Assembly: GCA_033581555.1 (NCBI GenBank)
Contig: JAVQSZ010000002.1
Location: forward strand, 141,778-205,777
Direction: 5' to 3'
Length of the DNA stretch: 64,000 bases
Origin: Nitrososphaerota archaeon
GTDB taxonomy: Archaea > Thermoproteota > Nitrososphaeria_A > Caldarchaeales > Calditenuaceae
The translations under genes were made by a program, and so were the position numbers. Shown one piece after another: positions 34,134-44,030 of the stretch (its first letter is position 1; every line of letters begins with the position of its first letter). The notes under the pieces are model-generated. The model ran no database searches and was not told where the DNA came from. It saw only the letters and a program-made list of their open reading frames with translations.

Positions 34134-35282
34134 TCACTCGAGGACGGCGAGCCCCTTGAGCACCAGATAGACGGCGGCGTGGGCCGGCAGCTCGGTCACT
34201 ACCGGTCCGTGGACCTCCTGGAATTCCAGACCTCCTAGCCTGAACCCCGGAGAGTACAGCACCTTCACCCTCATCGGTCTGCCCCTGATCGCGACGGCCT
34301 CATCGAACGGGTCGAAGTCGTGCAGCCTCTCGAGCGGGACCCTCCTCACCGCCAAGCCCGTCTTGCCGTTGAGCGACTCCGAGAGCCTCACGAGCCTGTG
34401 GACGTCGGCGGTCACGACCGGATCGATCTTCACCGACTCCTCACGGACGACCTCATCGAGCAGCCTCCTGACCTCCGAGGGCCTCATCCGTGCCAACGCC
34501 GACCCCACGTCCTCGTCCGTTCCGGTCGAAAGCCTCGCGTAAATCCTCCTCCAGATCCTCCCCCGCCACCCGTAGGCATCGAGCTCCGGTTCGCCGGCCG
34601 TTGCCCGACGGGGCCTCCCCCTTACGGACCCGAACCCCATCGCCTCTGGGGCCAACCCCTCCGCGGTCAGGTACTGGACTATCTCTCGCCTGCCCTGCTG
34701 GTCGAGGTCCCTCAGTTCTGAGGAGTCGACGACCACGTGGAACCCTCGGTTGCCGGAGAAGTTCACCTCGACGTCTTCCTCCCTGACGCCGAACTCGCCC
34801 AACAGCAATTCAACCAGCTTGATCAGCTCCCTCCGGGCCCCCTCGAGGCAACGCTCGCAGACCCAGTCGACCTCGACGGTCTTCGCGCCGCACCCGCACG
34901 ACTCGCCCTCCACGAGGCCGTGCTCCGTGCAGACCCGGAATACGTGATGTCCCCCGCACGGCGGGTCGGCGTGGTCAGCGTCGATGTCGAAGACGAGGTC
35001 CGCTCCAAGCCATCCCTTCTCCTCCATGGGAGCGGAGGGATAGGTGAAGTACGCGGAGGACCTGTATGCGTGAAGCGGGGCCACCCTCGCGAGCGTCACC
35101 AGGAGGTCATCGATGGACCTGAAGGCCAAGTGGCGAACCATCGTCGGCTTCGAGAACTCCCAGTACCCGAACTCTCTCTGCTCGAGACTCGTGACCCTAA
35201 TCGGGGGACGAGATCGATAATACTGCGAGAAGAGACTCCTGATCACCTCTAAGCGCTTAGCCTCGCTCTTGGTCGCCTCCAC
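34134..35282 (-). CDS. priS: DNA primase small (catalytic) subunit
   Basis: REFG, GADLVFDIDAD, FSGNRGFH, IDPVVTADVHRLVRL..SLNGKTG. Confidence 0.95.
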   Translation of the reverse strand: MEATKSEAKRLEVIRSLFSQYYRSRPPIRVTSLEQREFGYWEFSKPTMVRHLAFRSIDDLLVTLARVAPLHAYRSSAYFTYPSAPMEEKGWLGADLVFDIDADHADPPCGGHHVFRVCTEHGLVEGESCGCGAKTVEVDWVCERCLEGARRELIKLVELLLGEFGVREEDVEVNFSGNRGFHVVVDSSELRDLDQQGRREIVQYLTAEGLAPEAMGFGSVRGRPRRATAGEPELDAYGWRGRIWRRIYARLSTGTDEDVGSALARMRPSEVRRLLDEVVREESVKIDPVVTADVHRLVRLSESLNGKTGLAVRRVPLERLHDFDPFDEAVAIRGRPMRVKVLYSPGFRLGGLEFQEVHGPVVTELPAHAAVYLVLKGLAVLE

Positions 35283-35350: not shown

Positions 35351-36154
35351 TTACTGCGGCGCCACCAGCGTCCCCTTCGGCTCCTCCAGGACCTTCAGTG
35401 GGTCCTCCACGAGCCCGTTGGAGATGATGGCCAACTTCACGCCGAACGAGACGGCCTCACCGGCCAGCATCAGCTTCCTGTTCATTCCGGGACCGATCCG
35501 CTGCGACAGGTCGAACGCCTCTTGAGGCGTCAGCCTCCCCACGACTTCCCCGTCCACGAGGACCCCGTCGACGTCGCTGAGCAGCACTAGGGCGTCGGCC
35601 GAGATCGCCTTCGCGATGGAGGTCGCTGCCTGGTCTCCGTCGACGTTCAGGAGCTCTCCCTCCTCGCTGACCGCGATGGGCGCGACGACGACCGTGAACC
35701 CGCTCGAGGTCAGGAGCTCCAGGAGTTGGGGCGAGACGGAGGTGATCATCCCGGTGTACCCGCCCTCGATGACGCGCTTCCTCCCCCGGTCGTCGACCAC
35801 GACTATCCTCTTCTTCCTCTCCGCCGTGAGCAGGCCGCCGTCGGCACCCGAGATCCCGACCGCCTTCACGCCGAGCTTCCTGAGGGCCGCGACGATCTCC
35901 TTGTTCAGCTTCCCTGCCATCACCATGACGTAGACCTCGAGCTCCTGGAGGTCCGTGTACCTGCTCCTAATGCCCTGCGGCGATGTCACGAACTTCGGCT
36001 CGATCCCCATGCGCCTGGAGTACTCGCTGACGACGTCACCCCCTCCGTGGACGAAGACGATCCTGTGGGAGCTGGAGCGCCTCGCGATGCTCTCCGCGAT
36101 CCCCGTGAGGTTCCCGAGGAGCGCCCTGCCCCCTGCTTTCACGACGACCCTCAC
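35351..36154 (-). CDS. lysZ: [LysW]-aminoadipate/glutamate kinase (acetylglutamate kinase family)
   Basis: VVKAGG, VHGGG, SRYTD, GGYTG, LNVDGD, SDVDG, GMNRK. Confidence 0.88.
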   Translation of the reverse strand: MRVVVKAGGRALLGNLTGIAESIARRSSSHRIVFVHGGGDVVSEYSRRMGIEPKFVTSPQGIRSRYTDLQELEVYVMVMAGKLNKEIVAALRKLGVKAVGISGADGGLLTAERKKRIVVVDDRGRKRVIEGGYTGMITSVSPQLLELLTSSGFTVVVAPIAVSEEGELLNVDGDQAATSIAKAISADALVLLSDVDGVLVDGEVVGRLTPQEAFDLSQRIGPGMNRKLMLAGEAVSFGVKLAIISNGLVEDPLKVLEEPKGTLVAPQ

Positions 36155-37296
36155 GCCCGAGTCGCCTCGCCGCTGTCCGGGAGGACCAGGTCTTTGCCCG
36201 TCCTCAGCACCGGGGGTATCACGCCAGCCCTGACCGCGTGGTCAGCCAGCACCATCGCCACGACCGACTCGACGACCGGGACGGCCCTAGGCCCTATCAC
36301 CGGGTCGTGCCTACCAGTCACCACGACCTCCTCCTCGGACATCGTGCGGACGTTCAGGGTCCGTTGTGGGAGCGCGATAGAGGCTGGAGGCTTGAAGGCG
36401 ACCCTCACCACGATCTCCCTCCCTGTCGAGAGCCCCCCGACGATCCCGCCGGCGTTGTTGGTCACCGGGACAACCCTTCCGTCGACGAGCCCAAGCGGGT
36501 CGTTGTTCAGGGAGCCCCGCGAGTTCACCACCCCAAAGCCCGCCCCGAACTCGATGCCCTTGACCGCAGGGATCGAGAGGAGGGCCCTCGCCAAGTCCGA
36601 GTCCAAGGAGGAGAAGACCGGCTCGCCGAGGCCCGGGGGGACGTTGAGAACCAGGCACTCGACGAGGCTGCCGACGCTGTCGCCGGACCCCCTCGCCTCC
36701 AGCACGACCTGCCTCATCCTCTCCGCCGCCTCCTCGTCGGGGCACCTAAGGTCGTTCGAGTACCGCTTGGCCCTTATCGCGTCCACGGGGAGCTCCCTCG
36801 CCTCTACGCCGTCGATCCTCTTCACGTAGGCGAGCACCTCGGTCCCTAGGGTCACCCTTAGAAGCTTAATCGCCACCGCGCCTGCCATCACGAACCCGGT
36901 GGTTATCCTCCCGGAAAACCTCCCGCCTCCGCGCCAGTCATTGAACCCGCCGTACTTGACCCTCGCGAAGTAATCGGCGTGTCCTGGCCTCGGCGTCTCG
37001 AGCAGCCTCTTGTAGCTCCTAGAGTCGACGTCCTTGTTCCAGACCACCATCGCGATCGGCGCCCCGGTCGTGAAACCGTTGAAGACGCCGCTGAGGATCT
37101 CGACCCTGTCCTCCTCTCTCCTCTGGCTCGCGACCAGCGACTGGCCTGGCCTCCTCAGGTCTAGCAGAGGCTGAACGTCCTCCTCTGAGAGCGGTAGGCC
37201 TGCGGGGCAGCCGTCGATCACGACGCCGACGCACCTCCCGTGGCTCTCGCCGAAGCTCGTCACGACGAATCTCTCGCCGATCGAGTTACCTGCCAA
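36151..37296 (-). CDS. aroC: Chorismate synthase
   Basis: GESHG, RRPG, RPGHAD, GGGRFSGR, NNAGGIVGG, FKPPAS, GRHDP. Confidence 0.97.
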   Translation of the reverse strand: MAGNSIGERFVVTSFGESHGRCVGVVIDGCPAGLPLSEEDVQPLLDLRRPGQSLVASQRREEDRVEILSGVFNGFTTGAPIAMVVWNKDVDSRSYKRLLETPRPGHADYFARVKYGGFNDWRGGGRFSGRITTGFVMAGAVAIKLLRVTLGTEVLAYVKRIDGVEARELPVDAIRAKRYSNDLRCPDEEAAERMRQVVLEARGSGDSVGSLVECLVLNVPPGLGEPVFSSLDSDLARALLSIPAVKGIEFGAGFGVVNSRGSLNNDPLGLVDGRVVPVTNNAGGIVGGLSTGREIVVRVAFKPPASIALPQRTLNVRTMSEEEVVVTGRHDPVIGPRAVPVVESVVAMVLADHAVRAGVIPPVLRTGKDLVLPDSGEATRA

Positions 37297-38566
37297 CCTG
37301 CACGACCTCCAGCCCTACGCTCGAGACGTCCCTCAAGAAGTCTGGGTAAGAGACGTCGACCGAGCCGATCCCGAGCGTCTTCACCCTCCCGTGCGTCGCA
37401 GCGGAGAGGACCGCGAAGGCCATGAAGAGCCTGTGGTCGTCGCGCGGGTCCAAGACGACCTCGTTCACGGTCCCAGGTGAGACCGAGAGCCCGTCTTCGA
37501 ACTCCTCGACGATCGCGCCCGCCTTTGCCAGCTCGGACGCGAGGACCGAGACCCTGTCGCTCTCCTTGAACCTCGCGTGCCTCACCCCCCTCACTATGGT
37601 CTTCCCGTCGGCGAAGAAGCCCAGGACCGCGACGACCGGGAGCAGGTCCGGTGAGTCCCTTAGGTCGACCTCGACCCCCTCGAGGGCCGAGCCGCGAGTC
37701 TCGACGTATTCCTCGCCCCGCCTGACGCTCGCGCCCATCGCCTCCAGTATCTCGAGGATTGCGGAGTCGGCTTGGGGGAGAGCGGGGTCCAGCCCCGCGA
37801 CGCGGACGTATCCTCCGAGGAGGACCGGAATGACCAGTAAGAACGCCGCGAGGCCGTAATCGCCGGGGACCGTGAACCTCCCACGCTTGAGCGCGCGACC
37901 TCCGACCACCAGCCGCTTACCGTCGAACTCTGCCCTTCCCCCGAAGGCCCTGACGGTCTCCAACGTCGCCGCGACGTAGGGCCCCGAGACCAGCTCCCCG
38001 ACGACCTCAACCTCGGTCACCTCCTCGCACGCGGAGCCCGCGATAGCCAGCGCGGAGAGGAATTGGCTGCTGACGTCGCCTCTGATGCTGCACCGGCCTC
38101 CCAACGAGCCCTTTCCCTTCACGACGACCGGAGCGTAACCGTTCCCCCTCGTCGACCAGGCCTCGACGCCGAGCTGGCCCAAAGCGTCCAGGAGCGGCTG
38201 CATCGGCCTCCTCCTCAAGCTCGCGTCTCCGGTGAGGACCGTGTGACCTCTGCTGACGAGAGCCGCGACGCCGGTCGCGATTCTGAGCGTCGTGCCGGAG
38301 TTCATCGCGTCGATCACGTCCTCAGGGACCTCGGGCCAGCCTCCCTCGATCACCGCCGCCTCACCCATGAGCTCGACGTCGGCGCCGAACGCCCTCACAG
38401 CGCCGATGGTCGCCCTCGTGTCCCTTGAGACCAACGGGTTGTAGACGACGCTCTCGCCCTGGGCCAGCGAGGCCATGAAGACCGCCCTGTGAGTGTAGCT
38501 CTTCGAAGGAGGGGCCTTGACCTCTCCGCCGATGCTTTCTCTCGGCCTCAATGCGACCGCTCCCAT
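37286..38566 (-). CDS. aroA: 3-phosphoshikimate 1-carboxyvinyltransferase (start 38566 or TTG 38551)
   Basis: PPSKSYTHR, NSGTTLR, RRPM, SSQF, KESDR, DHR. Confidence 0.95.
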   Translation of the reverse strand: MGAVALRPRESIGGEVKAPPSKSYTHRAVFMASLAQGESVVYNPLVSRDTRATIGAVRAFGADVELMGEAAVIEGGWPEVPEDVIDAMNSGTTLRIATGVAALVSRGHTVLTGDASLRRRPMQPLLDALGQLGVEAWSTRGNGYAPVVVKGKGSLGGRCSIRGDVSSQFLSALAIAGSACEEVTEVEVVGELVSGPYVAATLETVRAFGGRAEFDGKRLVVGGRALKRGRFTVPGDYGLAAFLLVIPVLLGGYVRVAGLDPALPQADSAILEILEAMGASVRRGEEYVETRGSALEGVEVDLRDSPDLLPVVAVLGFFADGKTIVRGVRHARFKESDRVSVLASELAKAGAIVEEFEDGLSVSPGTVNEVVLDPRDDHRLFMAFAVLSAATHGRVKTLGIGSVDVSYPDFLRDVSSVGLEVVQVGR

Positions 38567-39402
38567 CCAACCGACCTCCGCAGCGCGAACCTCCCGATCG
38601 CTTCCATCCATTTGTACCCGACCTCGGCCCCGGTCCAGAGCCTGAACGACGCGGCCGCTTGCCTCGCGAGGACCTCCACGCCGTCGACCAGCTCGAGCCC
38701 CCTCGCCGAAGCGAGCCGAGACATCGGCGAACCCCTCGGCCCGTAGACGAGGTCGACGAGCAGCGCGCCGTCCTTGAGGTCCTCAGGCCCGATCGGGAGC
38801 TCAGCGCCCTCCACGAGCCCGACGGGTATCGTGTTGACCACGACTTGTGACCCCTTCGCGGCCTCCTTTGCCTTCTCGAGGGGTACCGCCGCGAGCCTCG
38901 ACTCTCCTAACGTCCTGAACCTCTCGACCAGCTCCTGGGCCTTGGCGAGCGTCCTGTTGGCGATCGAGACGGATCCGGCCCCGAGCGCGATCAGAGCCGC
39001 GACCGCCGCCCTCGCGGACCCCCCTGCCCCAATGACGAGGGCGTCGAACCCGCTCCCGATCGAACGCTCAGCAACGGCCTCCCTGATCGCGACGTAGTCG
39101 GTGTTGTGTCCTTCCCACCCGTCGTCCGACCTCTTGAGCGCGTTCACGGCCCCGATCAGCGCAGAGTCCTCGGACAGACTGACAGCGTGCTTCGCCGCCT
39201 CCTCTTTGTACGGGATCGTCACGTTCAGTCCAGCGAACCCGAGTTCGTGAAGGGCCCTCATCACAGAGCCGACCGCGCCCGATGACCTGACGTGAACGGT
39301 CACGTAACTCAGGTCGAGCCCGAGCCTCCTCGCGGTTAACGTGTGGATCAGGGGCGACACCGAGTGCGAGATCGGGTCACCGATCAGCCCGAGCAGGGGC
39401 AA
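38548..39402 (-). CDS. aroE: Shikimate dehydrogenase
   Basis: GDPISHSVSP, NVTIPYK, GAVN, NTD, GAGGSARA, NRT, DLVY. Confidence 0.95.
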   Translation of the reverse strand: MPLLGLIGDPISHSVSPLIHTLTARRLGLDLSYVTVHVRSSGAVGSVMRALHELGFAGLNVTIPYKEEAAKHAVSLSEDSALIGAVNALKRSDDGWEGHNTDYVAIREAVAERSIGSGFDALVIGAGGSARAAVAALIALGAGSVSIANRTLAKAQELVERFRTLGESRLAAVPLEKAKEAAKGSQVVVNTIPVGLVEGAELPIGPEDLKDGALLVDLVYGPRGSPMSRLASARGLELVDGVEVLARQAAASFRLWTGAEVGYKWMEAIGRFALRRSVGWERSH

Positions 39403-40099
39403 GTGCCACCACCCGATTAAGGAGCTCCGCCAAGAGCTTCGTCTCAGGGACGCTCAGCTGTCCAGGTGCGACCTCTTTCCCCTTCAGCGCTGCGTAGGTG
39501 AAGGGCGCGCCGAGGACCAGCGAGAGCGGCCTCGTCAGGCTCCATCTCTCGCCGACCGAGAACGAGACGAGCCCTCCCCTCGACCACTCGACCTCCCGGT
39601 AAAGGGCGAGCGTCGAGGCGGCTCCCGCAGCGGTGACCGGCGAAGTGACCAGCTTCACTAGATCGCCGTGGGACCTCAGGGCCTCCGCGAGCTTGACGAG
39701 CTCCGCGACGCTAGGGTCTCCGGGCCCGAGGTGGACAGACGCGATCACCCTTTCCGCCCCGAGCTCAGAGGCGAGCGACCTAACCTCGCGGATCATGAGG
39801 GAAGTCCTGTCGAGGTCCACGAGGTCAGCGTGCTCGGAGACAGCCCTCAAGACCTCGACGAGCGGCTTTGGTCCCCCGCTATAGCGACCGCCCTCCTCCC
39901 TCGACCTGACGGTAGCGATCACCGTCGCGCCCAGGTCCTTCGCGCCATCCACGACGGACGCGGCGAGGTTTAGCTCAGCGAGCGCGTCGAGCCTGAGCTC
40001 GATCAGGTCGGCGCCCTCCTCCAGCGCTCTACTCGTCAAGGCCTTGAAGCCCTCAGCGGTCTCAGACATGAGGCTCGCGCAGACCTTGAAGGCCCCCAA
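39377..40099 (-). CDS. aroD: 3-dehydroquinate dehydratase type I
   Basis: IELRLD, TVRSREEGG, SVH, VKL, APGQ. Confidence 0.9.
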   Translation of the reverse strand: MGAFKVCASLMSETAEGFKALTSRALEEGADLIELRLDALAELNLAASVVDGAKDLGATVIATVRSREEGGRYSGGPKPLVEVLRAVSEHADLVDLDRTSLMIREVRSLASELGAERVIASVHLGPGDPSVAELVKLAEALRSHGDLVKLVTSPVTAAGAASTLALYREVEWSRGGLVSFSVGERWSLTRPLSLVLGAPFTYAALKGKEVAPGQLSVPETKLLAELLNRVVALAPARADR

Positions 40100-40101
40100 G
40101 C

Positions 40102-41091
40102 TCAGACCTCCTCGATGAACTCGTCGACCGCGGTGCCCATGTGTCGGGCGGCAGCGCCCGACGTCCAGACGAGCACCCTGTCGCCCTCAGAGATCGAGGT
40201 CACGTCGAGTAGTTCGCCGTCCGGAGAGACGAGCCTTATGGTCTCCGCGGCCTGGAGCGCCACAGAGCCCGTCATCCCGTCGACCTCGGCGACGACGTTC
40301 GCGAGCGGCCTCCTCTCGACCTTCACCCTACCCACCGAGACCACCCTGCACCTTCCGTCCCTCGAGACCGCGAGGACCCTGCTCCCTGACCTCAGCTCCG
40401 AGAGGTAGTTCGTCCTCCCGCCGGGAGCCAGGACGTAGCAGTGGACTGAGCCCGCGTTGACCCTGAAGGGCCTCGGCGGGGTCAGCCTGCTCCCGACCGA
40501 CTCGCTGTGAACGAGGAAGAGCATCCTGGACATGTTCCCCACGAGCATCCCCTCGCCGACCCTGAGGATCGAGGTCGTGTCGACGCATGCCCTCTCGCCG
40601 AGCCCAAGCCCGACGACCTCCCTAACCTCTGCCTCCCTCAGCTCGAGCCTCTGAGGGGTGGAGAGCAGGTCCCTGATCACCTTCAGCTCCCCGAGCAGCT
40701 CCCTCCCGACCACGAGGCCGTCCACGCCCGACTCTAGGGCTCCAGCGACCAGCTCGACCTCTTGGAGCGACCTCACCCTCGCGAGGACCTTCACCCCGGA
40801 GCCCTGAAGGGCCGCGATGACGTTCTCCAGCGCGATCACCTTGAGGTCCTCGGGCTCGACGAGGACGGCCTGAACGCCAGAGCTCGCCATCGACCTCAGC
40901 GCCTCCACGTCCGACTGGTCCCTGACCTTGGCGATCCTGAGGTTCCTCTCGAAGACGTACGATCTCGCCGCCAGATCCGGTGACTCCGCGGCAGGTACGA
41001 GGACCGCGTCGGCGCCCAGCTCCAGCGCCTCCCTCGCCTCGAGCTCGGACCCGGCCTCGACAACCAGCTCCTTGTGCCTACCCCTGGACAA
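40102..41091 (-). CDS. aroB': 3-dehydroquinate synthase II
   Basis: IALENVIA, GERACVDT, GEGMLVG, RPFRVNAG, YLSEL, GRVKVERRPL, Q.AETIRL, RHMG. Confidence 0.93.
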   Translation of the reverse strand: MSRGRHKELVVEAGSELEAREALELGADAVLVPAAESPDLAARSYVFERNLRIAKVRDQSDVEALRSMASSGVQAVLVEPEDLKVIALENVIAALQGSGVKVLARVRSLQEVELVAGALESGVDGLVVGRELLGELKVIRDLLSTPQRLELREAEVREVVGLGLGERACVDTTSILRVGEGMLVGNMSRMLFLVHSESVGSRLTPPRPFRVNAGSVHCYVLAPGGRTNYLSELRSGSRVLAVSRDGRCRVVSVGRVKVERRPLANVVAEVDGMTGSVALQAAETIRLVSPDGELLDVTSISEGDRVLVWTSGAAARHMGTAVDEFIEEV

Positions 41092-41863
41092 CCCTTAGAG
41101 CCTCCTCAACGGTCCTGCCCTCGATCACGATCCTCCTCAGAGCCGCGACGATCGATCGAGGCCTGTCGTGCATGAAGACGTTCCTTCCGATCGTGACCCC
41201 CATCGCGCCCGCCTTCATCGCGCCGTAGGCCATCTCCAGGACATCGACGTCGCTCTCGGACTTCGGGCCGCCCGCCATCACCACGGGCGCTGGGCAGGAC
41301 TCGACCACAGCCCTGAAGGTCTCCGGTGAGCCAGTGTAAGGCACCTTCACGACGTCAGCGCCAAGCTCTGCGCCGACCCTCGCGACGTGGGCGATCACCT
41401 TCGGGTCGCTCGGGTCCTTGACGTTCTCGCCCCTCGGATACATCATCGCGATCAGGGGCATCCCGTAGTCGTCGCACGCGTCCGCGACCCTCCCGAGCTT
41501 CTCGAGCATCTGGGGCTCTGCCCTGCTGCCGATGTTTACATGGACCGAGACCGCGTCTGCTCCGAGCCTGATCGCGTTCACGACCTCGCCCACGAGGACC
41601 TTCCAGTTCGGATCTGGACCTAACGACGTGCTCCCCGAGAGGTGGACTATGTGACCTATCCTCGGGGGCCTCGGCATGTGCTTCAGGATCCCCTTGTGGG
41701 TCAGGACCGCGGTCCCGCCTCCCAGCTCGACTTCCTCGATCGTCCGGTAGATCCTGTCGAGACCTTTCACGGGTCCAGTTGAGACCGCGTGGTCCATCGG
41801 CACGCAGAGCATCCTCCCGGACTCGGTGATCCTCGAGAGCCTCACCTGCTTGCCTGAGACCAC
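41078..41863 (-). CDS. aroA': 2-amino-3,7-dideoxy-D-threo-hept-6-ulosonate (ADH) synthase
   Basis: VPMDH, HKG, GADAVSVHVN, MMYPRG, ELGADVVK, AGGP, GRN; adjacent to aroB'. Confidence 0.92.
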   Translation of the reverse strand: MVSGKQVRLSRITESGRMLCVPMDHAVSTGPVKGLDRIYRTIEEVELGGGTAVLTHKGILKHMPRPPRIGHIVHLSGSTSLGPDPNWKVLVGEVVNAIRLGADAVSVHVNIGSRAEPQMLEKLGRVADACDDYGMPLIAMMYPRGENVKDPSDPKVIAHVARVGAELGADVVKVPYTGSPETFRAVVESCPAPVVMAGGPKSESDVDVLEMAYGAMKAGAMGVTIGRNVFMHDRPRSIVAALRRIVIEGRTVEEALRVVQG

Positions 41864-41864
41864 C

Positions 41865-42917
41865 TCACACCAACCTCCCCGTAGCGTGGGCCAGCTCGGC
41901 AGTCAGGATCGCTATCCCCGCGGCTCCCCTGACGAGGTTGTTGCTCAGCGAGACGAACCTGATCGTCCTCTCCCTCGCTCCCTTCCTCAACCTCCCGACG
42001 AAGACCGGCATGCCCCTCACGTCGCCCGCTTCTGCGTCGAGCCTCGGCTGAGGCCTGTCGGGCTCGCTCATCACAACGATCGGCCTTCGCGGCGCCGTCG
42101 GGAGCTCCAGCCTCTGCGGTAGGCCCTCGAAGGAGCTCAGCGCCTCGACTGCATCCTCGAGCCTGAAGTCCCTCCCGAGCTCGACTGAGACGGACGCGAG
42201 GTGGCCGACCAGCGTCGGGACCCGCGTGCAAGTGGCGTCGACCTCGAACCCAGCCGGCTCGACCCTGCCGTCCGCGAGCCTCCCCAGTATCTTCTTCGGC
42301 TCCGTCGAGACCTTCTCCTCCTCTCCCCTGATGTACGGGATCACGTTGCCGAGGATCGCCATAGAGGGGACGCCGTTGTAACCAGCTCCTGAGATGGACT
42401 GCATCGTCACGACGTCGACGTGCCTCACGCCGAACGCGTCGACGAGCGGCTTTAGGGGTAAGACGAAGGTCAGGGTCGTGCAGTTGGGCGTCGTCACGAT
42501 GAAGCCGTCCCATCCCCTTCTCCTCCTCTGGACCTCGATCAGGTCGAGGTGGTCGGGGTTCACCTCTGGGACCATGAGCGGCACGTCGTCTTGGTACCTG
42601 TGAGCAGAGGCGTCGGAGAAGACCGGGAAGCCGGCCCTCGCGAACCCCGGCTCGATGGTCCTCGCAGCCTCGGTAGGGAGGCAGCTGAAGACCAGGTCGA
42701 CGTCGAACCTCTTCGGGTCCGACGGCAGCACCTCTAGGTCCCTGAGCCTCTCTGGCACCTCGCCCCTCCCCCCGTAAGCCTCGGCCAACCTCCTCCCGAC
42801 CGTCGTGTTCCCTGAGACGGCGGAGACCTCGAACCATGGATGCCCGTCCAGCATCCTCAGGTAGATCTGCCCGACCATGCCCGTAGCTCCCAGGACACCC
42901 ACCTTCAACTTGCCCAA
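41865..42917 (-). CDS. asd: Aspartate-semialdehyde dehydrogenase (archaeal type)
   Basis: GATGMVGQ, PEVN, PNCTT, QSISGAG, EEEK, CTRVP..GH, PQPRLD, NLVRGAAG; SD GGGGTGA 7 nt before TTG. Confidence 0.96.
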   Translation of the reverse strand: MGKLKVGVLGATGMVGQIYLRMLDGHPWFEVSAVSGNTTVGRRLAEAYGGRGEVPERLRDLEVLPSDPKRFDVDLVFSCLPTEAARTIEPGFARAGFPVFSDASAHRYQDDVPLMVPEVNPDHLDLIEVQRRRRGWDGFIVTTPNCTTLTFVLPLKPLVDAFGVRHVDVVTMQSISGAGYNGVPSMAILGNVIPYIRGEEEKVSTEPKKILGRLADGRVEPAGFEVDATCTRVPTLVGHLASVSVELGRDFRLEDAVEALSSFEGLPQRLELPTAPRRPIVVMSEPDRPQPRLDAEAGDVRGMPVFVGRLRKGARERTIRFVSLSNNLVRGAAGIAILTAELAHATGRLV

Positions 42918-42972
42918 GCACGGTTCACCCCAGAGACGGAGGCGGAGGGGGCGGGCGCGGGTTCCTTCATCC

Positions 42973-43038
42973 TCAGTTCCCGAAGTAGAAGTAGGGGTAG
43001 GTCGTGAACCAGAACGCGTTCACCGAGCTCAGGACCAC
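42973..43038 (-). CDS. Aromatic-amino-acid-rich leader peptide of the asd-aro operon (MVLSSVNAFWFTTYPYFYFGN)
   Basis: Read directly: GGAGGGGGTAGGT SD, then GTG GTC CTG AGC TCG GTG AAC GCG TTC TGG TTC ACG ACC TAC CCC TAC TTC TAC TTC GGG AAC TGA; stop is 55 nt before asd. Confidence 0.8.
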   Translation of the reverse strand: MVLSSVNAFWFTTYPYFYFGN

Positions 43039-43076
43039 ACCTACCCCCTCCGCTCGGACTGCTCCGAAAAGACCAC

Positions 43077-43120
43077 GATAAAAACGTGTGGCGAACCTTT
43101 TTGCCGCCTGAACCATAAAG
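43077..43120. promoter_or_regulatory. Divergent TATA boxes for the leader-asd-aro operon (minus, TTTTTAT 43084-43078) and aroK (plus, CATAAAG ~43114-43120)
   Basis: AT-rich boxes ~25-30 nt upstream of the leader's 5' structure and of the aroK ATG, respectively. Confidence 0.55.
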
Positions 43121-43148: not shown

Positions 43149-44030
43149 ATGTCGCTGGAGGGCAAGGCGGTCGTCGGAGGGGCGGTGACGGTAGTCAACG
43201 CGATACCGACTGGAAAGGGGGCTGCGCTCGGAATAGGGCTGCGGACGCGGGCGAAGCTCAAGTTGGTCGAGGGCGGGTCCGGCGTGAGGTTCTTGAACGC
43301 GGATCGAGTCGGGGACGACAGGGTCGTCAGGGCGACGGTCGAGGAGGTCCTCAAGTGGTCGGGGACGGGGGAGTACGGCGTCGAGGTCGAGGTGCTCTCA
43401 GAGGTCCCGGTGGCAGTCGGGCTGAAGAGCTCGAGCGCCGCCGCGTCAGCGGTCGCCTTCGCGCTCTTCGACGCGCTCGGACTGCGACCGTCGCCCCAAG
43501 AGGCCCTGAGGCTGATCGCGGAGGCGTCGCTGAGGTCTGGGACGTCGATAACCGGTGCTGCGGACGATGCAGCTGCCTGCTTCATGGGAGGGTTCGTGGT
43601 GACCGATAACTCGACCAAGGCGCTCTTGAGGAGGGTGGAGATCGGGGGCGACCTCGTGGCGGTCGTCTCGGTCCCGAGGGGCAGGAGGACCTACACCTTC
43701 GAGTTCAAGCGCGAGCTCCTCGACCCGTTCAGGCCGGCGTTCGATGCGGCCTTCGACCTGGCACTCCGCGGTGACCTCTTCGGGGCCATGACCGTCAACG
43801 GGCTCGCGATGTCCACGGCCCTCGGTTACGGCGCCGACGTCATCACGTCCGCGATGAGGAGAGGGGCGCGGTCCTGCTCGATCTCGGGGACCGGGCCAGC
43901 GATCGCCGCACTGGTCAGCAGAATTGACTCCGGTGCCGTCTCCGAAGCCCTCTCGAGTTACGGCGACGTGATGGTCGTCGAGCTGAACAACGAGCCCGTG
44001 ACCCTCGGGAGCGGGAGGCGCTGGCCTTGA
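43149..44030 (+). CDS. aroK: Archaeal shikimate kinase (GHMP family)
   Basis: [51 protein letters not shown]. Confidence 0.93.

Follow-up and report, generated by a model that had tools for sequence, protein, structure and literature searches.

Leader-peptide attenuation is the textbook bacterial case of coupled transcription and translation, and its classical representatives are the ribosome-mediated transcription attenuators of Escherichia coli: pheL-pheA, trpL, thrL and hisL. Other leaders, such as tnaC with its Rho-dependent control and the erm and cat leaders, sense a free ligand or drug via the nascent peptide. In mycobacteria, leaderless poly-Cys short open reading frames (ORFs) are described as translational attenuators, in which ribosome stalling keeps the downstream ribosome-binding site (RBS) out of a sequestering duplex (10.1101/834739). 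For Archaea, ribosome profiling (Ribo-seq) of Haloferax volcanii and Methanosarcina mazei has revealed small ORFs in 5' untranslated regions which the main accounts call reminiscent of bacterial leader peptides (PMC10117724, PMC11456600), and a tool paper states in general terms that upstream ORFs act in archaea. Full-text literature searches, with the Ribo-seq supplements of PMC11456600 and PMC10117724 outside their coverage, returned no characterised archaeal amino-acid leader attenuator. A candidate for such an element is described here in a 64,000-nt stretch of DNA (the window) from the metagenome-assembled genome (MAG) of a Nitrososphaerota archaeon (Caldarchaeales; Calditenuaceae; GCA_033581555.1, JAVQSZ010000002.1:141,778-205,777), whose closest named relatives are hot-spring MAGs labelled Caldarchaeales and Calditenuaceae. 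The element is a short ORF within a conserved RNA fold, ahead of an operon for aspartate-semialdehyde dehydrogenase (asd) and the aromatic pathway, and it probably serves, at the 5' end of the asd-aro mRNA, as a leader-peptide sensor in which ribosome stalling would report the supply of Tyr and Phe, perhaps also of Thr. Attenuation by leader peptides is itself well known in bacteria; what is new is a candidate in archaea. All leader and operon coordinates below are window positions on the minus strand unless stated otherwise.

The leader ORF comprises 21 codons and a stop (42973-43038), running from GTG (43038-43036) to TGA (42975-42973). Residues 9-19 (42982-43014) form the putative regulatory run Phe-Trp-Phe-Thr-Thr-Tyr-Pro-Tyr-Phe-Tyr-Phe, in which 8 of 11 codons are aromatic, and an SD-like (Shine-Dalgarno-like) G-rich stretch (43053-43044) ends 5 nt (43043-43039) 5' of the GTG. 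A TATA-like box (43078-43084) marks the asd-aro promoter, and after the leader come asd, the genes for ADH synthase (aroA') and DHQ synthase II (aroB'), aroD, aroE, and the genes for EPSP synthase (aroA) and chorismate synthase (aroC), in that order by NCBIfam assignment. A preliminary description of the locus had reported this leader, its aromatic content, its SD, the TATA-like box and the operon order, and each was found where it had been placed. When the whole 1.43 Mb genome was scanned in six frames (2,845,856 windows of 11 codons), a density of 8 aromatic codons in 11 was reached by three windows in two places, one of which is the leader ORF. The other is a Phe-rich stretch elsewhere (G000, C7:47830-47871, minus strand). 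From an in-frame ATG (43116) a longer ORF of 47 codons could be read; this ATG is upstream of the TATA box and not conserved in the related locus L003.

Conservation was followed in a family set of 18 loci from four genera (six loci in g1, one in g2, eight in g3 and three in g4). A small in-frame ORF is present in all 18 loci, 48-84 nt 5' of asd, and was not found in any of 11 loci from three sister families. Across its span frame 0 is open in 18/18 loci, against stop-bearing alternatives in 17/18 and 12/18 for the other two frames. Three adjacent codon columns specify Tyr or Phe in 54 of 54 alignment cells, through the codons TAC, TAT, TTC and TTT, and the column preceding this triplet is Tyr in 17 of the 18 loci. 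In the Tyr/Phe columns the first codon position does not vary, while the second takes A or T and the third C or T, a codon-periodic pattern which, read from the alignment, is what selection on amino-acid identity predicts. The N-terminal two thirds of the peptide vary freely, and in g3 the peptide ends in Phe-Gly-Pro. This conservation in 18/18 loci, with its variation by codon position, strongly backs the proposal, already made in the preliminary description, that a Tyr/Phe-rich leader is translated ahead of the aromatic operon. The same source had suggested that one sensor integrates Phe, Tyr and Trp. The first two are indeed invariant, but Trp occurs in only 13/18 leaders, and the commonest leader residue is Thr, at 13.1% of the pooled residues against 3.8% in long open frames of the genome. 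Since Thr is enriched in the leaders and asd is present in single copy, the leader may read Thr as well.

Start codons are kept genus by genus, and the promoter is conserved along with the frame. In g1, g2 and g4 a GTG or ATG lies 14-19 nt into the RNA behind a G-rich SD. In g3 that start has been lost, and an ATG conserved about 27 nt past the TATA box suggests instead that the leader mRNA of this genus is itself leaderless. In the 17 family loci with enough upstream sequence, the TATA-like block stands at a fixed distance 5' of the leader RNA. In archaea the centre of the TATA box is located about 26-27 nt 5' of the transcription start site (TSS), and this spacing predicts a TSS at about 43057-43053; the earlier expectation of a start near 43055 fits the conserved distance between TATA box and leader fold. 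Between the TATA box and the leader ATG of g3 (L008-L014) there is also a partly conserved inverted repeat with 7-nt arms about 9 nt apart, which may be an operator for a DNA-binding regulator.

In the nucleotide alignment of the 18 family loci, the leader RNA is a three-way junction of helices P1, P2 and P3. P1 pairs the G-rich 5'-terminal stretch of the RNA (43044-43053), which is also the SD of the leader ORF, with a C-rich strand (42942-42951) located 10 nt upstream of the asd SD (42925-42931). P2 pairs the end of the leader SD and the start codon region (43035-43047) with the Thr-Thr-Tyr-Pro codons (42994-43006), and P3 is a hairpin containing the leader stop codon. The core Tyr-Phe-Tyr/Phe codons are single-stranded in the junction between P2 and P3. 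An SD-like G-rich motif follows the P1 3' strand at 0-22 nt in every family locus, a constant geometry. The preliminary description had listed three complementary pairs as competitors, and all three are present exactly at the positions given. Two of them are P1 and P2, which are real covarying helices, but they coexist as two arms of one junction instead of excluding each other; an overlap between them, of four G, is restricted to the subgroup to which the window belongs. In the window P2 has two possible registers, the 9+3 bp register described earlier and that of the family.

Support for the fold was quantified with a covariance model (R1) built from the 18 family sequences, the pairs being counted on the model's alignment, whose fit to the model biases it in favour of the structure. 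On this alignment pairing is seen in 83.8% of cells; sliding the partners by 1-3 columns reduces the figure to 46-50%. Changes on both sides are seen in 13 of 29 pairs among the 18 loci, and in 15/29 after adding five metagenome variants from a scan in which 19 of 24 pattern matches were true elements. The covariation score is 0.256 (0.25-0.26) versus 0.175 for shuffles, and no shuffle out of 500 reached it. In P1, 90-91% of cells are paired, with G-C/A-U and G-U exchanges and a further compensatory change in the metagenome variant L125; in P2 the figure is 86%, with 8-9 of 14 pairs changed on both sides. The P2 loop, which lies inside the ORF, has a single length within each genus, and its lengths in different genera are exactly 3 nt apart. 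The structure belongs to the sense mRNA strand, because G-U pairs are frequent and antisense scores weak (29 vs 100 bits). In 18 of 19 family genomes R1 finds a single element, in every case ahead of asd; the one genome with no match is 73% complete and has no aroA' orthologue either. Minimum free energy (MFE) folding of single sequences at 70 °C recovers the full three-way junction in 13/18 loci, and P1 with P2 and no P3 in L016 and L018. Folding z-scores range from -7.4 to -9.1 in four loci and are weaker in the window (-2.9) and in L015 (-2.5). The window itself has P1, an imperfect P2 and a weak P3, and scores 78.5 bits (E 6.6e-15) against R1.

Similar leaders were sought across the phylum in a sample of 401 genomes, of which 258 had an aroA' match; from the 150 matches listed, 40 were picked by hand with at least one per family, a non-random choice. 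The 3.6 kb upstream of aroA' was examined in each, and one locus (L181) was dropped because the contig end was too close, leaving 39. A locus was taken as positive when a stop-free 10-codon window with at least 6 aromatic codons lay within 230 nt upstream of the first operon gene. Such leaders occur in 11 of the 39 loci versus 8 of 684 control windows, and at a threshold of 7 in 8/39 versus 1/684. The eleven belong to eight families beyond the window's own, so that the aromatic-rich leaders expected in related genomes have been found in all 18 family loci and, as analogues, in eight other families. Of the sampled operons, 19 have aspartate kinase or asd as their first gene, and 11 of these are positive. 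In the largest family (f5) none of 13 loci was positive, and the sister-family locus L183 has no leader either. In the positive loci promoter-like TATA boxes lie 5' of the small ORFs, the next gene is aspartate kinase in 5/5 tested with asd and/or aroA' after it, and a stable hairpin directly follows the leader stop codon (p<=0.04 in 9/11). Several of these peptides end in Phe-Gly-Pro, like those of g3. Since the window's class consists of its own order only, one positive genome's class holds four other families and the remaining positives fall in neither, aromatic leaders are spread over at least three classes, the window's own included.

The accompanying folds are more varied. A P1-like pairing of the leader SD region with the stretch before the aspartate kinase SD occurs in L165 and L172, which represent two families of another class (p=0.003). 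P1-like helices (p<=0.003) are significant in only 2/11 leaders and P2-like helices, joining the start region to the aromatic codons (p<=0.03), in only 3/11, and hence neither is universal. Two loci of family f21 (L178 and L184; approximately 2104-2230 in oriented coordinates), one of which has a leader with seven Tyr in a row, carry a 14-15 bp hairpin and then at least five U directly before the aspartate kinase SD; judged by sequence, they come closest to a classical terminator-type attenuator among the loci seen. When regions upstream of asd were searched instead, the full 1500 nt gave two further positives among 63 named loci, the unclassified MAGs L034 and L035, and the proximal 400 nt gave only two near relatives among 55. 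Some hits were discarded: L077 has 6 aromatic codons in 10, but in a frame with nearby stops, and the aromatic-rich stretches just before aroA' in L160 and L161 have no start codon and lie inside the promoter, making them false positives.

Ahead of one and the same pathway's operon, independent lineages whose nucleotide sequences are unrelated thus retain a start codon and an open frame that ends in a Tyr/Phe run, with a hairpin behind it. It is very difficult to account for these shared features unless the ORF is translated and its codons are under selection. The ORF and the fold are shown here, with their conservation and position; that the leader is translated, at what moment, in which direction the switch works and by which step it acts on the operon are inferred, the direction from physiological logic. 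Because the finished fold buries the leader SD and start codon, initiation on the leader would be possible only while the RNA is being synthesised. With ample charged Tyr- and Phe-tRNA the first ribosome would reach the stop codon and leave, after which the junction would close, leader translation would cease and the operon would remain at a low resting level. During a shortage the ribosome would stall on the codons of the P2 3' strand and the junction, blocking P2 and P3. The leader start would then stay accessible, and following ribosomes would hold the P1 5' strand and keep the junction open. The asd start adjoining P1 would be used under these circumstances and expression would rise. Candidate output steps are hindered initiation at the SD located 0-22 nt after P1, factor-dependent termination or polarity on untranslated RNA, and mRNA decay.

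Several results weigh against this reading, most of them at the output step. The leader RNAs of the 18 loci were folded at 37 and 70 °C with masks for a 30-nt stalled ribosome, a ribosome at the stop codon, the 5' arm and the whole ORF, and no mask produced a consistent switch at either temperature. At 70 °C the mean accessibility of the asd RBS was 0.541 for free RNA, 0.545 with the stalled ribosome and 0.544 with the ribosome at the stop codon; with longer context the values were 0.531, 0.490, 0.512 and 0.535. Once the RNA is completely folded, the asd SD is predicted to be free. When the P1 5' strand is masked, the predicted accessibility of the asd SD falls from 0.55 to 0.36, mainly in g1 and by at least 0.15 in 11/18 loci, because the freed C-rich strand can pair with the SD. 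At face value this result predicts a sign opposite to that of the proposed switch, with less asd translation when ribosomes queue. No leader segment beats composition in complementarity to the asd RBS (-20 to +6; mean z -0.21 to +0.37). In the MFE fold of the window P2 gives way to a helix between the start region and the stretch that follows the stop codon, and the folds of L001-L003 depart from the junction in the same way. Distribution is a further difficulty: R1 is absent from 57 genomes of three sister families (0/57), a leader was not found in 28 of the 39 loci sampled across the phylum, and in the window's genome no amino-acid-biased small ORF lies upstream of trpE, the tyrA cluster, the gene before hisG, the gene before ilvB or the hom cluster. 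The region upstream of pheA in this genome is coding.

The failure of models based on RBS occlusion is one reason to consider the same sensor with a transcriptional output, which is a possible but unlikely alternative. Here the ribosome position would expose untranslated C-rich RNA to a termination or cleavage factor, with polarity of the FttA/aCPSF1 type, or would govern an oligo-U terminator, much as Rho-dependent tna control or classical attenuation does. Polarity and FttA are both part of archaeal gene expression. In the window's family the region after the leader stop is C/U-rich and G-poor and is sequestered only on P1 formation, and the hairpins with oligo-U of L178 and L184 resemble a terminator. 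However, a hairpin with a U-tract was not found before asd in the window, g1 or g3; in the window there is no T-run of three or more between the leader stop and asd, in agreement with the preliminary description. Moreover, RNA polymerase would be uncoupled from the leader ribosome in both states, which weighs against this scheme.

A structured RNA acting independently of translation, whether as a riboswitch, by binding tRNA or protein, or by stabilising the 5' end, with the open frame as a by-product of a pyrimidine-rich junction, is considerably less probable. The fold is very stable and covarying, it buries the SD and start of the ORF, its conserved junction could serve as a binding site, and the inverted repeat of g3 between the TATA box and the RNA start might be an operator. 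Against this, variation in the junction tracks codon positions exactly, the frame is kept open where other frames are not, loop length changes in steps of 3, and start codons are kept at two different positions. In eight other families, comparable aromatic runs ahead of this operon are encoded by unrelated nucleotide sequences. Nor is a described RNA family recognised, the best hits in Rfam 15 reaching 15.1 bits against gathering scores of 49 and 168.

Slightly weaker still is the mechanism advanced in the preliminary description, in which a ribosome stalled on the aromatic codons masks an anti-SD (43010-43004, the Trp-Phe-Thr codons) that would otherwise pair with the asd SD region (42928-42922), which would be translational attenuation like that of erm or of the mycobacterial Cys ORFs. 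The window does contain the 7-bp complementarity, and the leaderless Cys ORFs reported from mycobacteria provide a precedent (10.1101/834739). When the 28 nt before the P2 3' strand were tested against the asd RBS with RNAduplex (200 shuffles, fraction <=0.05, with cross-genus partners), the cognate pairing was at chance level, rising above shuffles in only 2/18 loci and being no better than pairs made across genera. In L002, the nearest relative, a lone change within the asd SD region disrupts it without compensation. The claim that a stall frees the asd start did not hold either, since folding with the ribosome footprint leaves the predicted accessibility of the asd RBS unchanged in 18/18 loci, and no leader segment is specifically complementary to that site. 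A search of asd positions +1 to +36 likewise gave nothing above composition except a modest signal in g3, where the P2 3' strand is complementary to nt +5 to +20 (p<=0.05 in 4/8 loci). In L176 and L177, from another class, pairing is possible between the final codons of the leader and the first G of the aspartate kinase SD; these two cases and g3 are the nearest approach to the scheme. Folding by genus with RNAalifold and the 5' arm forbidden gave no alternative helix common to the genera, so that pairing, segment and per-genus tests all failed to reveal a conserved alternative pairing. Finally, it is highly improbable that the ORF encodes a small functional protein, such as a hydrophobic peptide acting on an enzyme or membrane, for although its C-terminal motif is conserved at the peptide level across families and Phe-Gly-Pro ends recur in several lineages, the N-terminal two thirds are free of constraint, only codons for pathway end products are conserved and the position is fixed at the 5' end of a biosynthetic operon.

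A second small ORF of 21 codons, rich in Pro, begins 2 nt after the leader stop in the window (42905-42970) and ends 13 nt inside asd, running across the P1 3' strand and the asd SD. Such an ORF is found in 7/18 loci (the window, L002-L006 and L015), that is in 6/6 loci of g1 and the single g2 locus, and is absent from g3 (0/8) and g4 (0/3). It has 18-24 codons and stops 4-13 nt inside asd; three arrangements of its ATG are seen, either overlapping the leader stop or no more than 5 nt away from it. It may be a termination-reinitiation relay, an occlusion device or a by-product of high G+C. A different arrangement is seen in g4 (L016-L018), where an SD 0-2 nt after P1 precedes a start resembling the asd start of g3, and the asd start of g4 itself lies about 35 nt further downstream than in g3. 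In L018 a 15-codon ORF from the upstream start ends in a stop/start overlap with asd, and this start looks like a relic turned into a coupling ORF.

In the window the operon begins with asd (41865-42917; TIGR00978 and NF006416 above cut-off), whose TTG start aligns with the ATG of relatives, and continues through aroA', aroB', aroD, aroE, aroA and aroC (36151-41863), also with NCBIfam matches and with neighbours that abut or overlap. The asd-aroA' pair is kept in 29 of 30 loci among 40 relatives compared, the thirtieth being cut by a contig end. Beyond aroC, on the same strand, follow a LysW-type amino-acid kinase of the LysZ/ArgB family (35351-36154) and then the DNA primase small subunit PriS (34134-35282), an ordinary arrangement. 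Upstream of the leader and outside its transcript, a divergent archaeal GHMP-type shikimate kinase gene (43149-44030, plus strand; TIGR01920, its ATG assigned from sequence) reads away from it. Elsewhere in the genome, a leader of about 150 nt 5' of the gene before ilvB (G000, C5:92417-92600, minus strand) lies downstream of a TATA-like box and carries C-rich tracts immediately 5' of the SD; it contains no Ile/Leu/Val-rich small ORF and may be another structured leader. In one genus of the sister family f4 (G034 and G048) the aroA' match contains one in-frame TGA, which could be a sequencing error, a pseudogene or recoding.

Taken over the phylum, the case for ribosome-mediated amino-acid attenuation as an old and widespread form of control in Archaea is reasonably good, if a little less secure than that for the single locus. 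Tyr/Phe leaders, several of them ending in Phe-Gly-Pro and each with a hairpin that holds or abuts the stop codon, would control aspartate kinase or asd-aroA' operons in at least nine families and three classes of Thermoproteota, with no terminator of the bacterial type and with a fold that also gates the leader's own initiation site. The element would tie aspartate kinase and asd to the control of aromatic biosynthesis, which fits the pathway, since the archaeal route begins at aspartate semialdehyde. If this is true, archaea use the ribosome as an amino-acid sensor despite their eukaryote-like transcription machinery, and the leaders offer a defined and phylogenetically broad system for how ribosome position becomes gene output in these organisms. 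Direct tests are feasible because a family member, Calditenuis ramacidaminiphagus, is reported to be in stable laboratory culture (PMC12979851).

Compared with described systems, the element is of neither the classical nor the mycobacterial type, as it has no U-tract terminator, no mutually exclusive hairpins and no RBS-sequestering duplex. The uORFs of Hfx. volcanii and M. mazei differ from it in that, as described in the main accounts, they have no amino-acid-specific codon run, conserved fold or biosynthetic logic (PMC10117724, PMC11456600). With tnaC, erm and cat it would share a ribosome held near the end of the leader ORF that controls access to the RNA just downstream, but the conserved feature here is codon identity, with an N-terminal peptide that is unconstrained. 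The analogy with the mycobacterial Cys ORFs, as far as that account describes them (10.1101/834739), may extend to a sensory ORF at the extreme 5' end (with g3 probably leaderless), stalling at end-product codons, independence of a terminator and control at the level of the operon; unlike in mycobacteria, the RBS-sequestering duplex is unsupported, with a partial and weak signal confined to g3 and L176/L177. From the classical attenuators the family is set apart by an archaeal host with a different RNA polymerase and termination, by the lack of a terminator hairpin and U-tract, by conserved helices that are nested and compatible rather than mutually exclusive as terminator and antiterminator, and by regulatory codons that pair with the leader's own initiation region. 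What it has in common with pheL, trpL, thrL and hisL is a short ORF upstream of a biosynthetic operon, kept in 18/18 loci downstream of the TATA block and presumably on the operon's transcript, regulatory codons placed in the strand of an RNA helix, a stop codon close to the next helix, and clustered codons for end products, here Tyr/Phe with Thr, which recall the multivalent thrL and ilv leaders.

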